From the NCBI RefSeq assembly GCF_054482525.1, contig NZ_JBTHVG010000003.1: a stretch of DNA of 64,000 bases; one strand, 5' to 3'. The stretch's first letter is position 1. Each line of letters starts with the position of its first letter. The position numbers and the translations under genes are program-made. This document shows, piece after piece, positions 2,983 through 16,997 of the stretch. This DNA comes from a plasmid. The notes below the pieces were generated by a model. That model saw nothing but the letters and a program-made list of their open reading frames with translations. It searched no databases and was not told where the DNA came from.

Positions 2983-3267
2983 TTATTTAAGCTGGTCATC
3001 GTCTCTGGCCAGCATAGCCCAACCATTCGACTGGTTTTCGCGGGAGTAAGGATTCATTTCAAAATAACTATCTACCGCGTCGCTGTCCGCAACAGAACTG
3101 TTGTTAGCTCTCTTTGAACCCTGAACCACTACAGCATCAACCTCTGCGGCTTTCCCGTTGCGCTGTACCAGGATTTTAACCGTCTTGGGCTTACGTCTTG
3201 CGAGCAGTTTGTTGGCGATAAAAAGCACAACAATCCAGGCCAAAAGCACGTATAAAAATTTATTCAT
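2983..3267 (-). CDS. small membrane-anchored hypothetical protein
   Basis: ORF with N-terminal hydrophobic helix; palindromic motif copy ~165 bp upstream. Confidence 0.35.
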   Translation of the reverse strand: MNKFLYVLLAWIVVLFIANKLLARRKPKTVKILVQRNGKAAEVDAVVVQGSKRANNSSVADSDAVDSYFEMNPYSRENQSNGWAMLARDDDQLK

Positions 3268-3428
3268 AATGCCCTCCTTTGTATGTGATTATTATACCTG
3301 CTTCCATTGCAGGCCAAACAGGTTCGGTGTATGAAAAATAGACTTCTCTCCGGCGTATAGCAATCTACTTACTGATCTGTTTTCGTATCAAACTGTATGG
3401 CATAACCGAGGGGCGTACGTGGTGAGTC

Positions 3429-3444
3429 AGAAAGTTACTTTTCC
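3429..3444. promoter_or_regulatory. palindromic motif copy (agaaagttacttttcc)
   Basis: Read directly; 5' of gene 2983-3267. Confidence 0.4.
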
Positions 3445-3623
3445 GTAATAGTTAATTTCAGATCCTTCTTCCAGTTACGCTTCAGTATAAAACCGATACC
3501 CTCTAATTCAGCATCCTTCACGTTTAATACGCTTCACTTTAAGGCAGGGCTTTTCGGTTGATATGAATTCTTTTTCCGGTTGCTGGACATGGGTTTCATC
3601 CTGATAGTTAAAATTGCAGGCTA

Positions 3624-3926
3624 TCAGTCACCACCACCACCTCCTCCTCCTCCTCCTCCACCGCCACCATCACAACCACCAGCTATGCTATTTTCACCAT
3701 TACAATCACCTCCGAGGGGGTTCAAATGGCTGCTCCCCTGTAGATGGTGTCCTTGCCAGATCGAACCCGAACCAGCGCCTCCTGAGCGTCTTTGCTTGCC
3801 CTGAGGCAATTGTGCAGGCTCACCAGCACCGGCGGTCCCAAAAATGTCCCGGGCAATTTTATAAAGAAGGTAAAAAGGTACGCCCAGCATCATAAAAAAG
3901 ATTCCTGAAAATATTACACGTTCCAT
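3624..3926 (-). CDS. Gly-rich hypothetical protein with C-terminal poly-Gly tail
   Basis: ORF with hydrophobic N-terminus and terminal Gly run encoded by a (CCN)n tract. Confidence 0.3.
   Translation of the reverse strand: MERVIFSGIFFMMLGVPFYLLYKIARDIFGTAGAGEPAQLPQGKQRRSGGAGSGSIWQGHHLQGSSHLNPLGGDCNGENSIAGGCDGGGGGGGGGGGGGD
3628..3680. repeat. (CCN)n trinucleotide simple-sequence tract
   Basis: caccaccaccacctcctcctcctcctcctccaccgccacca read directly; codes poly-Gly on minus and poly-Pro on plus. Confidence 0.8.
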
Positions 3927-11793: not shown

Positions 11794-12199
11794 AGGGCTG
11801 CATCAGCCAGGCCCGGATATAAATACATGCTCTGCCAGGTGAGTACCACTGCCCGGTAGCCGAATGATAAGTTTTGATTTCACGGTTGCAATTTCTCCCT
11901 CTGGCATCACTGCTCCACGATGCACCCCGATCAGCTTAGCGTCTGAAAATGAAGATGCACCGGACCTGCATGAAGCGGAACGGTGCCCAGCTGAGTGTTT
12001 GTGGGCACAATGAACCGCAATTTCATGATGGGAATGAAAGATGGCTGGTGGCCCGCTGATATGAACGCTTACCCTGCATAACGTTACTAACCACAATCTT
12101 TTCACTAAAAGAAAAAAGGGTTCCTCCGCTTTAGAGGAACCCTTTCAAAAGGTGCCGATGGCATACTAATCCACACCCTGAAAAGAGGGGGGTTGCCCC

Positions 12200-13538
12200 C
12201 ATAAGCGCTAACTTAAGGGTTGTGGTATTACGCCTGATATGATTTAACGTGCCGATGAATTACTCTCACGATAACTGGTCAGCAATTCTGGCCCATATTG
12301 GTAAGCCCGAAGAACTGGATACTTCGGCACGTAATGCCGGGGCTCTAACCCGCCGCCGCGAAATTCGTGATGCTGCAACTCTGCTACGTCTGGGGCTGGC
12401 TTACGGCCCCGGGGGGATGTCATTACGTGAAGTCACTGCATGGGCTCAGCTCCATGACGTTGCAACATTATCTGACGTGGCTCTCCTGAAGCGGCTGCGG
12501 AATGCCGCCGACTGGTTTGGCATACTTGCCGCACAAACACTTGCTGTACGCGCCGCAGTTACGGGTTGTACAAGCGGAAAGAGATTGCGTCTTGTCGATG
12601 GAACAGCAATCAGTGCGCCCGGGGGCGGCAGCGCTGAATGGCGACTACATATGGGATATGATCCTCATACCTGTCAGTTCACTGATTTTGAGCTAACCGA
12701 CAGCAGAGACGCTGAACGGCTGGACCGATTTGCGCAAACGGCAGACGAGATACGCATTGCTGACCGGGGATTCGGTTCGCGTCCCGAATGTATCCGCTCA
12801 CTTGCTTTTGGAGAAGCTGATTATATCGTCCGGGTTCACTGGCGAGGATTGCGCTGGTTAACTGCAGAAGGAATGCGCTTTGACATGATGGGTTTTCTGC
12901 GCGGGCTGGATTGCGGTAAGAACGGTGAAACCACTGTAATGATAGGCAATTCAGGTAATAAAAAAGCCGGAGCTCCCTTTCCGGCACGTCTCATTGCCGT
13001 ATCACTTCCTCCCGAAAAAGCATTAATCAGTAAAACCCGACTGCTCAGCGAGAATCGTCGAAAAGGACGAGTAGTTCAGGCGGAAACGCTGGAAGCAGCG
13101 GGCCATGTGCTATTGCTAACATCATTACCGGAAGATGAATATTCAGCAGAGCAAGTGGCTGATTGTTACCGTCTGCGATGGCAAATTGAACTGGCTTTTA
13201 AGCGGCTCAAAAGTTTGCTGCACCTGGATGCTTTGCGTGCAAAGGAACCTGAACTCGCGAAAGCGTGGATATTTGCTAATCTACTCGCCGCATTTTTAAT
13301 TGACGACATAATCCAGCCATCGCTGGATTTCCCCCCCAGAAGTGCCGGATCCGAAAAGAAGAACTAACTCGTTGTGGAGAATAACAAAAATGGTCATCTG
13401 GAGCTTACAGGTGGCCATTCGTGGGACAGTATCCCTGACAGCCTACAAAACGCAATTGAAGAACGCGAGGCATCGTCTTAACGAGGCACCGAGGCGTCGC
13501 ATTCTTCAGATGGTTCAACCCTTAAGTTAGCGCTTATG
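12200..13538 (+). mobile_element. IS186 (IS4 family), complete
   Basis: Transposase recognised from memory as IS186; terminal inverted repeats cataagcgctaacttaaggg / cccttaagttagcgcttatg; flanked by duplicated GC-rich gggggttgccccc target. Ends +/- a few bp. Confidence 0.85.
12249..13367 (+). CDS. IS186 transposase
   Basis: 372-aa ORF 'MNYSHDNWSAILAHIGKPEELD...' with IS4-family 'YRLRWQIELAFKRLK' motif. Confidence 0.85.
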   Translation: MPMNYSHDNWSAILAHIGKPEELDTSARNAGALTRRREIRDAATLLRLGLAYGPGGMSLREVTAWAQLHDVATLSDVALLKRLRNAADWFGILAAQTLAVRAAVTGCTSGKRLRLVDGTAISAPGGGSAEWRLHMGYDPHTCQFTDFELTDSRDAERLDRFAQTADEIRIADRGFGSRPECIRSLAFGEADYIVRVHWRGLRWLTAEGMRFDMMGFLRGLDCGKNGETTVMIGNSGNKKAGAPFPARLIAVSLPPEKALISKTRLLSENRRKGRVVQAETLEAAGHVLLLTSLPEDEYSAEQVADCYRLRWQIELAFKRLKSLLHLDALRAKEPELAKAWIFANLLAAFLIDDIIQPSLDFPPRSAGSEKKN

Positions 13539-13561
13539 GGGGTTGCCCCCCTCTTTGTCAG

Positions 13562-13720
13562 CTACTTACCGGATTCGTAGGCCAGGATAGCAAATACCTC
13601 CCTTGTTCCGTCTTTCATCCGCAACTCGCAAAGCGAGTTTCGTGTGAGCCAGGTGAATATCAACAGCGTTAAACAAACTATTAATATGCACAAAACAATG
13701 GGTTGGTTCGGCATTTTCAT
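13562..13720 (-). CDS. hok: Hok/Gef-family type I toxin
   Basis: 52-aa product '[52 protein letters not shown]' closely resembles Hok/FlmA; an overlapping mok-like extension reaches 13777. Confidence 0.75.
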
Positions 13721-13818
13721 GGCCTTCTTCTCCTTGCATTTAAGCAGGCAAGAGGCTACGCTGTGTGTGACTAGCATACAGGGGCCTCGGGTTGTACTGA
13801 CCCCAGAAAGTTGGACAG

Positions 13819-14670
13819 TTAAACACGAGGCATATAGGTCTGATTCCGATATTCAATTGGAGTCAGACCTTTTAATTTCAGGCTAATTCTTCTGCTGTTG
13901 TAGTATTCAATATATTCCGTAACAGCATCCTTCAGCTCGCTTATATTACTGAACTCATCAAGATAAAAACACTCCGACTTTAAGGTTCCAAAGAAACACT
14001 CCACCACAGCATTATCCAGACAATTGCCTTTTCTGGACATGCTTTGTTTAATACCATGTTCTTTAAGGATATTTTGATATCTTCTCATACGATACTGCCA
14101 TCCCTGGTCAGAGTGCAGAACAGGATGCTCGTGAGGATTAAGCTTTTTGAATGCCTGATCGAGCATATTCTCGACCATGTTCATCACTGGTCTTTCCGAA
14201 AGGCTGTAAGAAATAACTTCGTTGTTGAAGAGATCTATTACTGGAGACAAATACAGCTTGCGCCCATTGACTGCAAATTCAGTAACATCGGTAACCCACT
14301 TCTCGTTTGGCCGCGTAGCCTTGAAATCTCTTTGGAGAACATTGGGGGCGGTTTGCCCTACCTCTCCTCTGTAAGAGCGGTATCGCTTGACCTTAATCGC
14401 TGCCTTCAGTGAGAGGATTCCCATCAGGCGCTGAACAGCTTTATGGTTAATCTGTTTCCCTTCTCGATGAAGAGACAGCGTTACCCTACGGTATCCGTAT
14501 CGGCCTCTATTCTCATGATAAATCTCACCAATACGCTTTTTAACGTCCGCATACTTGTCAGGCTTGCTGAGAGCCTTTAGATGGTAATAAAACGTACTGC
14601 GCGGTATCTCCGCAGCCCTGAGAAGCTCATCAAGAGGATAAAACTGCCTTAGCTCGTTGAGTACTTTCAC
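13819..14670 (-). CDS. IS150 OrfB (IS3-family transposase catalytic part)
   Basis: 283-aa ORF overlapping orfA end; DDE integrase-like. Confidence 0.8.
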
Positions 14671-15188
14671 TTTTTCGTGGGATGAGCTAAGGCTTTCAGC
14701 TTTTTTAGATACACAAGCCGCGTTTCAAGAAATCGAACTTGCCTTTCAAGATCCTCAATGCGTCGGTCTTTTGACAGCTCCAATGCTGATGCCGCTTTTT
14801 CTGGATCAACTGATATTGCAATGTTTCTTTTGGTGCCAATCTTGAGCGCGCGTAAACCAGCTTCTCCGCGCTCTTCATAAACCTTCAGCCACCTGGCTAC
14901 AGAACCACTACCAGCAAGCATAAAGTGAGCAGCAGCCTGATTAAGGGACATGTGCTGCTCGATCACCGCTTTCACGACCTTAATACGCAACTCAGGATCA
15001 GCACTAACACCTTTAGGTTTGGGAATTAAACCTTTTTCTCCATGTTTTTCATAGAGGGCAACCCATGTCCTGACCTGGGTTCGGGGGACACCAAAACGTG
15101 CCGAGATGATCCTGTAACCATCATCAGTAGTGAAGTAGTGATTCACGACTTCAAGGCGCTTTTCAAAAGGGTATTTTGGCTTTGACAT
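14667..15188 (-). CDS. IS150 OrfA (IS3-family transposase N-terminal HTH part)
   Basis: 173-aa ORF inside IS150. Confidence 0.8.
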   Translation of the reverse strand: MSKPKYPFEKRLEVVNHYFTTDDGYRIISARFGVPRTQVRTWVALYEKHGEKGLIPKPKGVSADPELRIKVVKAVIEQHMSLNQAAAHFMLAGSGSVARWLKVYEERGEAGLRALKIGTKRNIAISVDPEKAASALELSKDRRIEDLERQVRFLETRLVYLKKLKALAHPTKK

Positions 15189-15520
15189 ATCAGGGGCTAT
15201 TCCATTTCATCGTCCAACAAAATGGGTGCAGTACAGGTTAATTGAAAAATTACTCGGGGCTTTCTGCTTTTACCACAGTCAAACAGTGTTACCGCTGGCT
15301 GGGGCAAAAGCCTCCAGCACCAGCGTCATTATATCACTCTGCCCTGATCAGCCAAACACCCTGCCTGCATAAATCATTGATTTATAATTTATTTGACATG
15401 AGTCACTTCCGGTTGTCGGAGACAGTCTTTTTACACTAAAGAAAAGGGTAACGGGCAGCTGCTTGGTCGGAACATACAGTGCAGTTCCTGCCCGTTTAAT
15501 TTCCGGATGCAATGGTAGGA

Positions 15521-16126
15521 TCAGGAGGCACTGGTTCCGTTGATTAGGGAAAGCTTATGTGCCTGAATACGGCTGTATTCGAGATGGGATGGAATATTAC
15601 AGATGCGCTCCAGTCGATCATGCAGCCTCGTGTAGGTCAGTCGATGAATACCGGACATTTCATCAAGTAGCCAGCGCTTGATGTAAGGGTTACAGGAAAG
15701 CCGGGCAAGATCGTCGTCATCCACTTCGTCAAAGAACCAGTACTGCTCCATCGGGACTACCTGAAATATCCACGGCCGGGGATAGTCCCCTGTGACAACC
15801 AAAAACCATGCGAGAAAGCATAGACACAGCTCAACGATCATCAGCATCGAAAATTGCGAATAACTTAGACCAGGCACATAGGGTGAACTATCCGCAACAT
15901 ACCCCCTGAACAATTCCGCCACAAGGTAGCCCAATAGCGACAAGGCCAGCATCAGGGTCAGGATTAATCCCCCATTAAACGCTACCGAAGCCTTTTGAAC
16001 CCGATCAGGTGCTGTCCGGCTGCGATAGTTGGTCACTACTCTTTCTACAAGTGCCCTTATGGCAGCCTGTTCTTTACTGACATCAGCTCCGGAAAAACCG
16101 GACGGGCTTTTATTTAATTCAGTCAT
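15521..16126 (-). CDS. integral membrane hypothetical protein
   Basis: ORF with several hydrophobic helices. Confidence 0.4.
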   Translation of the reverse strand: MTELNKSPSGFSGADVSKEQAAIRALVERVVTNYRSRTAPDRVQKASVAFNGGLILTLMLALSLLGYLVAELFRGYVADSSPYVPGLSYSQFSMLMIVELCLCFLAWFLVVTGDYPRPWIFQVVPMEQYWFFDEVDDDDLARLSCNPYIKRWLLDEMSGIHRLTYTRLHDRLERICNIPSHLEYSRIQAHKLSLINGTSAS

Positions 16127-16623: not shown

Positions 16624-16997
16624 ATTATATCCTTAAGCCAACACGAACTGCGCCACAAAAATTAATGTGGCGCAATTTACCATAAACAATAAACATCAGA
16701 TACCCGTGAAGAGATTTCCCTTTATTTTAAAATTCTTCTGGAGAAAAAATGATATTTCCAGAAGAAGTCAGCGAAATTCAGAAACGGCCATCACAATGGT
16801 GCTGCGCTGACGCTGGCGTTCTGCCTTGCGCTGCCTGCGGCGATAGATCTATTTTGCGCTGACGTAAGGGCAGTCCTCACGGGTATACCAGCAGCAGCCG
16901 CAAGGTTCGGGCCGGGGTTTTCCGGCAAGTCCAAATGGTTTCATCAAGTCACCTTTTTAATATTTTTAATGGCAAGATACTTCCCTAACACATTGTT

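Follow-up and report, generated by a model that had tools for sequence, protein, structure and literature searches.

Introduction

The hok/sok (parB) locus of plasmid R1 is intact and experimentally proven, and the closure between the 5' and 3' ends of its hok mRNA is established as the tac-fbi lock. R1 and the IncF plasmids share one organization, in which a promoter, the tac 5' end, the Sok target with the mok Shine-Dalgarno (SD) sequence, the overlapping mok and hok reading frames, a GC-rich hairpin, fbi and a terminator follow one another. Together, fbi and the terminator would normally lock the full-length hok mRNA in a stable reserve form that cannot be translated. Thisted et al. (1994), in their title, describe a competition between the hok mRNA 3' end and Sok for the mok initiation region. 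In Escherichia coli K-12, insertion sequences (IS) are considered to have inactivated the chromosomal genes hokA, hokC and hokE (Pedersen and Gerdes 1999, as cited in PMC7232551 and PMC12214031). Here we describe a hok/sok locus of the same organization in a 64,000-nucleotide stretch of plasmid DNA (NCBI RefSeq assembly GCF_054482525.1, contig NZ_JBTHVG010000003.1; hereafter the window), in which IS150 and IS186 flank the hok gene. We consider it probable that this is the native IncHI2 module for post-segregational killing, that it has been cut into three by two transpositions into hot spots, and that it is most likely disarmed.

Genes of the hok/sok type lie near insertion hot spots of mobile elements across species (10.1101/527788). 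In experimental evolution, IS150 inserted repeatedly beside hokC, hokE and mokB (PMC5419217), and sokE::IS150 is known from XL1-Blue as well as from more than 400 natural isolates, with sokA likewise disrupted by IS150 (PMC11551753). No paper was found by literature searches combining IncHI2, hok and IS150, or hokB/sokB and IS150. The window is a plasmid-borne (IncHI2) instance of the already known IS-interrupted hok loci, and its decay is well precedented.

IncHI2 plasmids are major carriers of mcr, extended-spectrum beta-lactamase and metal-resistance genes. Addiction typing by polymerase chain reaction gave "no" system for plain IncHI2 plasmids (PMC4855149), IncHI2 plasmids possess further stability systems and remain stable, and the stability of an mcr-1 IncHI2 plasmid was attributed to parAB and hipAB (PMC6306219). 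Since most sequenced members of the lineage described here have an interrupted hok/sok, their stability would be creditable to partition, hipAB and similar functions and not to the annotated "Hok family toxin".

Results

An IncHI2 hok/sok locus interrupted by two insertion sequences

The whole window was found to be 100% identical to IncHI2A plasmids of approximately 250 kb from E. coli, Salmonella and relatives, and the same 3.9-kb IS186-hok-IS150 order was present, in identical form, in 65 separately sequenced plasmids. When both elements and one duplicate of each target were deleted in silico, the resulting sequence was contiguous and 100% identical in 70 other plasmids, for example in the IncHI2A plasmid pM160133_p1. 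A chance arrangement or a misassembly is ruled out by the identical arrangement in 65 plasmids and by the clean empty-site alleles. The uninterrupted sequence is the complete hok/sok locus of the IncHI2 plasmid. It matched the Rfam family RF01794 with 81.1 bits (gathering score 59), and the window itself gave two sub-threshold halves of 46.7 and 34.4 bits, at 15322-15159 and 13872-13718, respectively. Positions 1 to approximately 78 of the family aligned with 15322-15239 and positions approximately 80-157 with 13792-13718. Because these halves were found on either side of IS150, the element bisects the hok leader. Neither a second hok copy nor an extra copy of IS186 or IS150 was present in the 64-kb window. 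The coordinates of the features are listed in Table 1.

RF01794 is named "sok antitoxin (CssrC)", yet its matches (minus strand of the window at 13718-13872 and 15159-15322; positions 3289-3447 of the plasmid record L007) are on the hok-sense strand and extend from the 5' end of the hok mRNA as far as the hok AUG. In effect, the family models the hok leader and not the antisense RNA.

Table 1. Features of the interrupted hok/sok locus, in window coordinates.
Feature	Position	Strand	Properties and basis
Intrinsic-terminator-like hairpin with T-run	12114-12146	minus	14-bp stem with 6 GC pairs, tail TTCTTTTAGT
fbi-like 3' element, hok sense CCAUCGGCACC	12151-12161	minus	complementary to hok mRNA 5' end
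Left arm of GC-rich inverted repeat, including left IS186 duplication (GGGGTTGCCCC, 12189-12199)	12182-12199		
IS186, 1339 bp	12200-13538	plus	23-bp terminal inverted repeats; transposase open reading frame 12249-13367
Right IS186 duplication (13539-13549) and right inverted-repeat arm	13539-13557		
hok toxin open reading frame, 52 amino acids, intact	13562-13720	minus	no stop or frameshift
mok-like upstream extension in frame with hok	13721-13777	minus	71-amino-acid frame 13562-13777, as in K-12 mokC/hokC; Rfam alignment
Probable sok promoter TTGCAT-17 nt-TACGCT, still beside hok	13734-13762	plus	position-for-position homology
Sok 5' ~24 nt (target-recognition end), kept and running into IS150	13769-13792	plus	homology with K-12 sokC and sokE; fold
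mok Shine-Dalgarno CGAGG	13785-13789	minus	adjoins IS150
IS150 (IS3 family), 1443 bp, co-oriented with hok	13793-15235	minus	orfA 14667-15188 (173 amino acids) and orfB 13819-14670 (283 amino acids), both intact
Hairpin with T-rich tail within IS150 end, Sok strand	13836-13870	plus	15 pairs; -22.5 kcal/mol, z = -6.6 (predicted)
Displaced 5' hok mRNA leader with 5' end (tac region ~15310-15321)	15239-15322	minus	RF01794 positions 1 to ~78
Displaced 3' part of sok: rest of terminator hairpin and U-run	15239-15271	plus	joined directly to 13769-13792 in the uninterrupted allele
hok promoter-like site TTGGCT-16 nt-TATAAT, extended upstream TG	15328-15355	minus	consensus scan, 10/12 matches

The hok gene was intact, as the first-pass annotation of this sequence had proposed. 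Its product matched the NCBIfam model NF007279 "Hok family toxin" over the full length (1-52 of 52) with 122.8 bits, compared to a cut-off of 73, and Pfam PF01848 with an E-value of 7e-18. It was 69% identical to R1 Hok; verification covered the R1-type DNA. In most plasmid records, the Prokaryotic Genome Annotation Pipeline calls a 39-residue product (120 bp) for the same gene (3133-3252 in record L007 and 3263-3382 in record L011), and it is the full 52-residue frame that fits the Hok family model over its whole length. The in-frame mok-like extension and sok are both unannotated in the public plasmid records of this gene.

An mRNA of 375 nt was rebuilt from the uninterrupted sequence, and in its predicted fold nt 1-8 paired with nt 368-375. 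A like closure of the 5' and 3' ends was predicted for the reconstructed loci of R1-type IncF plasmids, pKAM576_1, K-12 hokC and K-12 hokE, and across the five loci the paired positions showed compensatory (covarying) changes in the fold predictions. In the window itself, the tac and fbi partners lie 3.2 kb apart, with two insertion sequences between them.

IS150 separates the hok promoter and leader from mok/hok

The IS150 copy was identical to K-12 IS150 at 1426 of 1443 positions (98.8%), had imperfect terminal inverted repeats and was flanked by a 3-bp target duplication, GGT, at 13790-13792 and 15236-15238. It lies 5' of hok within the leader, where the first-pass annotation had placed it, although the gap to the hok ATG is 72 nt and not 73. 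The hok mRNA 5' end (GGUGCUGGAGG at approximately 15321) is on the far side of the element, and the strong hok promoter-like site is now 1.4 kb away from mok/hok.

On the opposite strand, a probable sok promoter was recognized from the R1-type sequence TTGCGC-17-TATCCT and from the annotated K-12 starts of sokC, 6 nt inside mokC, and sokE, 44 nt 5' of hokE. The reconstructed Sok RNA of 57 nt is predicted to fold as a 5' tail followed by a terminator hairpin, and IS150 splits this hairpin in its ascending arm. The first-pass annotation had supposed that IS150 occupies the place of both the leader and the sok promoter. The leader is indeed split, but the sok promoter probably survives next to hok together with the first ~24 nt of Sok. 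Thus, of the intact sok promoter and leader that had been considered for 13721-13792, the promoter and the Sok 5' end appear to be in place, whereas the 5' leader with tac is detached.

A sub-terminal sequence of IS150, ATGCCTCGTG (IS sense; 13823-13832, approximately 31-40 nt from the IS end), matches 10 nt of R1-type Sok exactly and is thus complementary to the R1 mok SD region, CACGAGGCAT; the mok SD of the window is at 13785-13791. A hairpin formed by ATGCCTCGTG and the mok SD is predicted across the insertion junction on either strand. The 10-nt identity may be due to chance (for a 10-mer match anywhere in the IS the expectation is approximately 0.1, and far less at this position) or to target choice.

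IS186 separates hok from fbi and the terminator

The IS186 copy was identical to K-12 IS186A (1339 of 1339 positions); public records label this IS4 family element as IS421 family. Its 11-bp target duplication is direct (GGGGTTGCCCC at 12189-12199 and 13539-13549). An IS186 with a duplicated target in the 3' flank of hok was thus confirmed, and the coordinates given in the first-pass annotation were right. Removal of the element and one duplicate restored AAAGAGGGGGG-TTG-CCCCCCTCTTT, with perfectly complementary 11-nt arms and a 3-nt spacer. The perfect palindrome described in the first-pass annotation is therefore a perfect inverted repeat but, with its TTG spacer, not a strict palindrome. 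The uninterrupted hairpin, AAAGAGGGGGGTTGCCCCCCTCTTT, is present in record L007 and starts 5 nt past the hok stop codon. Its interpretation as the transcript-end hairpin did not hold: it is an internal hairpin of the 3' untranslated region, and fbi and the terminator lie beyond IS186 (12114-12161). The terminator-like hairpin is contiguous with hok in the intact allele and represents the ancestral hok transcription stop. Because the fold of the reconstructed mRNA pairs its 5' end with its 3' end, IS186 sits between the reading frame and fbi.

The target consensus of IS186 is GGGG(N6/N7)CCCC, as quoted in PMC6925257, and the hok hairpin was the sole match to it in the 64-kb window. The lone other near-match, GGGGATAGTCCCC (GGGG-N5-CCCC) at 15778-15790, is unoccupied and lies inside a hypothetical 201-residue reading frame at 15521-16126.

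The IS186 site is hit recurrently in hok loci

In K-12, IS186A is inserted 19 bp past the hokC stop codon, within GGCGGGGATCACTCCCCGCC, and IS186B 18 bp past the hokE stop codon, within GCGGGGAGTAATCCCCGC, each with a 10-bp duplication. A second IncHI2 lineage with approximately 96% identical flanks (hereafter the 96% lineage) carried IS186 in the same hairpin as the window, with a 10-bp duplication and an element differing by 2 nt. These differences indicate that the IS186 of the 96% lineage is an independent event, and a single ancestral insertion for both IncHI2 lineages was rejected. All four hairpins, those of K-12 hokC and hokE and of both IncHI2 lineages, fit GGGG(N6/N7)CCCC.

A hot spot of IS186 in a promoter is likewise recurrent and orientation-independent, with GGGG(N6/N7)CCCC as target and a duplication of 10-11 bp (consensus as quoted in PMC6925257). 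In that case the target is a promoter, whereas the DNA targeted in the window specifies a conserved RNA hairpin, which is why one gene family is hit repeatedly by IS186. In the E. coli chromosome NZ_CP180604.1 (1015601-1015942), a Hok/Gef gene 86.5% identical to the hokE region adjoins IS421/IS186 and may be another independent IS186-hok association.

The IS150 site is hit recurrently by IS150 and ISKpn8

Insertion sites of the IS150 group are written here in hok sense, with the duplication in square brackets and a slash at the insertion point. The window site is CAATTA[ACC]/CGAGGCC. The 96% lineage carried ISKpn8 at this same site with the same (GGT) duplication. In IncF plasmids, IS150 was found at AACCA[CCA]/CGAGGCAT in pCA28 and at TTAAC[CCA]/CGAGGCC in p_dm728_NDM5; pKAM576_1 carried ISKpn8 at TTAA[CCCA]/CGAGGCC; and the chromosomal hokE of strain W60 carried IS150 at ATCAA[CCC]/TGGGGC, 72 nt 5' of the ATG. 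In all six examined insertions with a target duplication, the orfB end faced hok, so that element and toxin gene were co-oriented. The insertions thus repeat within 1-3 nt and in one orientation in loci that are only approximately 80% identical. In one IncF plasmid, IS150 was found 13 nt further upstream, in the hairpin loop. Moreover, by our own count on the K-12 sequence, position 16,972, reported for a hokC insertion in experimental evolution (PMC5419217), maps to the homologous CC/CGAGG spot.

The ISKpn8 of the 96% lineage was 94.4% identical to the IS150 of the window and matched an IncF-borne ISKpn8 at 1442 of 1443 positions, which indicates a recent, separate insertion. One ancient IS150 insertion common to both IncHI2 lineages was rejected, since the 96% lineage carries ISKpn8. 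Strain W60 also had IS186 after hokE, and among 5426 complete E. coli genomes, 379 carried the full IS150-hokE-IS186 sandwich.

Another hok/sok copy, in plasmid pMB8072_1 (1795-3319), has ISKpn8 at the CCA/CGAGG site. The far side of this element adjoins the extreme hok mRNA 5' end (GGCGCTTGAG) with no target duplication, and the hok frame is truncated beside IS26 and annotated "FlmC family protein". It represents an event of this same type at a more advanced stage of decay.

Distribution of the alleles among plasmids

All four allelic states occur among IncHI2 plasmids. In a census based on coverage thresholds for junction-specific queries, which is approximate, includes related lineages and is uncorrected for shared ancestry, both elements were found in 65 records, an IS150-group element only in approximately 480 (ISKpn8 alleles included), and IS186 only in 65. 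The intact allele of the lineage with at least 99% identity was found in 70 records; a broader query gave 400 "intact" records, among which an IncHI1-type homologue was included. Within the lineage of at least 99% identity, IS-interrupted alleles accounted for approximately 500 of approximately 580 records.

Comparison with hokE, hokC, hokA and R1

The window locus fits the class of IS-interrupted hok loci, with IS150 and IS186 flanking an intact reading frame at positions homologous to those in hokC, hokE and sokE::IS150. The likeness to K-12 noted in the first-pass annotation was borne out: IS186 is in the equivalent GC-rich hairpin of hokC and hokE, and IS150 is at the equivalent leader spot of chromosomal hokE. 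The closest match is hokE/sokE, which has IS186B in K-12 and also sokE::IS150 in XL1-Blue and many isolates, and thus the same IS150-hok-IS186 order. As in the window, its IS150 lies 72 nt 5' of the ATG, co-oriented and directly 5' of an SD-like motif, with a 3-bp duplication. Its IS186 occupies a GGGG(N6)CCCC hairpin that immediately follows the stop codon, and the duplication there is 10 bp long. In contrast, the Hok sequence and the leader of hokE, a chromosomal paralogue, are quite unlike those of the window locus, which belongs to the IncHI2 plasmid backbone. IS186 runs in the same direction as hokE, whereas in the window it is convergent with hok. Duplications of CCC and GGAGTAATCC in hokE, compared to GGT and GGGGTTGCCCC in the window, show that the events were independent.

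In hokC (gef)/sokC with IS186A and hokA/sokA with IS150, the element is also near and not inside the toxin frame, though each of these loci has one element and the window has two. The IS186A of hokC lies in the GC-rich hairpin between the frame and the fbi-like 3' end, as in the window. The IS150 of K-12 hokA interrupts mokA/sokA; it has the opposite orientation and no target duplication, lies 32 bp from the ATG, and approximately 40 bp appear to be missing, which suggests an associated deletion.

Compared to R1 hok/sok, the window locus has the same elements in the same order and, for the reconstructed mRNA, a predicted 5'-3' closure, and IS150 has struck the IncF copies as well, at the spot used in the window. 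The mok frame, however, is out of frame with hok in R1 and in frame in the window locus, as in mokC, and the R1 3' hairpin (GGCGGGC...GCCCGCC) is without the GGGG(N6/7)CCCC motif.

Discussion

The two insertions would dismantle the circuit known from R1 in different ways. IS150 is inserted in the Sok terminator hairpin, which on the opposite strand is directly 5' of the mok SD. It thereby moves the hok promoter, along with the leader's first ~83 nt and the tac end within them, 1.4 kb away from mok/hok, and it also takes the terminator half from Sok. IS186, whose GC-rich target hairpin follows shortly 3' of the hok stop codon, detaches fbi and the terminator. The hok frame, the mok leader frame, the probable sok promoter and the Sok 5' end stay in place, and the pairing of a long-lived inert hok mRNA with a short-lived Sok could presumably no longer be made as in R1. 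With the R1-type circuit lost, the module would most likely be without post-segregational killing. This loss is deduced from the displaced promoter and tac, the split Sok and the displaced fbi. The proposal of the first-pass annotation that the module is disarmed is thus plausible, on grounds that are in part different from those first given.

Several observations weigh against a disarmed module. Killing by even the intact IncHI2 allele is presumed from its sequence. The hok and mok frames, the sok promoter and the recognition end of Sok are all intact, and IS150 is co-oriented with hok, so that read-through into hok is possible. A consensus promoter scan did not call the sok promoter at 13734-13762, which was assigned solely by homology. 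Moreover, the plasmid counts share ancestry, and the number of independent events is informative while the raw frequencies are not.

The positions of the insertions are not accidental: IS186 is at GGGG(N6/7)CCCC, and the IS150 group is at the junction of the Sok hairpin and the mok SD. This recurrence may reflect a target preference of the elements, selection for disarming in a safe way, or a combination of the two. That target preference plays a strong part is favoured because of the single match to the IS186 motif and because of the recurrence of the IS150 group at the nucleotide level and in constant orientation. A possible rule is that the two DNA segments of hok/sok that encode conserved RNA hairpins are preferred targets of IS186 and of the IS150 group. 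Such a rule would offer a simple mechanistic reason for the association of hok loci with the same two elements, and would turn a K-12 anecdote into something testable. The hok/sok junction would also be a defined natural target for the study of site and orientation selection by IS150.

A further, rather unlikely proposal is that the IS150 group (IS150 and ISKpn8) homes in one orientation to the junction of the Sok hairpin and the mok SD, and that the insertion is constructive, converting a killer locus into a silent safe harbour. The IS150 end may give the truncated Sok a new terminator, and in a modelled read-through RNA the IS150 sequence AUGCCUCGUG may sequester the mok SD. If true, the safe harbour would travel with stable replicons, and IS family and toxin-antitoxin family would be co-adapted. 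The predicted SD sequestration and new terminator suggest why this site and this orientation are tolerated.

The same predictions bear on a rewired locus, in which read-through from IS150 or from the displaced hok promoter into mok/hok would be matched by an antisense RNA that is a chimera of Sok and IS150, so that toxin and antidote would both still be made and interact, and the IS150-only allele, at any rate, would retain some toxin-antitoxin activity. We judge this unlikely. The hairpin at 13836-13870 is a possible terminator of the chimera, which is predicted to keep a free 15-nt 5' tail and to gain this strong terminator-like hairpin and T-run. A read-through hok RNA would be fully complementary to it, the hok and mok frames are intact, IS150 was co-oriented with hok in each of the six events with a target duplication, and Sok acts through a 5' single-stranded leader according to the title of Thisted et al. 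(1994). However, in the window IS186 takes away fbi and the terminator as well, so that the pool of stable, inert mRNA on which delayed killing depends could not form as in R1. In the predicted read-through RNA, IS150 GCCUCG pairs with CGAGGC of the mok SD, and an SD sequestered in this way points to silence; in the IncF case, the predicted pairing between IS150 and the mok SD was 10 bp, AUGCCUCGUG with CACGAGGCAU. The terminator and promoter calls are, moreover, consensus or fold predictions only.

It is least credible that selection against a toxin that is costly or incompatible with the host, and not target preference, was mainly responsible for fixing the insertions, with recurrence arising since only insertions that silence hok without first removing Sok function leave viable cells. 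IS-interrupted alleles do dominate the lineage of at least 99% identity, IS150 inserted repeatedly near hok loci in evolution experiments (PMC5419217), and Durrant et al. (10.1101/527788) read the insertion hot spots adjacent to hok/sok as possibly adaptive. Nevertheless, the IS186 site is the lone match in 64 kb to the established target motif of that element, the precision of the IS150 group exceeds what selection for loss of function would need, and the clonal spread of resistance plasmids confounds the frequencies seen in sequenced plasmids; target preference and adaptive disarming are not mutually exclusive.

Loss of the hok leader in R478-like plasmids

In many R478-like IncHI2 plasmids, the hok homology ends approximately 14 bp 5' of the hok ATG and is followed immediately by a relE/relB type II toxin-antitoxin pair. 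In pKOX100_1 (IncHI2A, 96% lineage; 3258-3860), for example, the break corresponds approximately to window position 13734. The hok leader and promoter were not found within the next 3 kb in those plasmids. This junction represents a third, IS-independent route to leader loss for the same hok gene.

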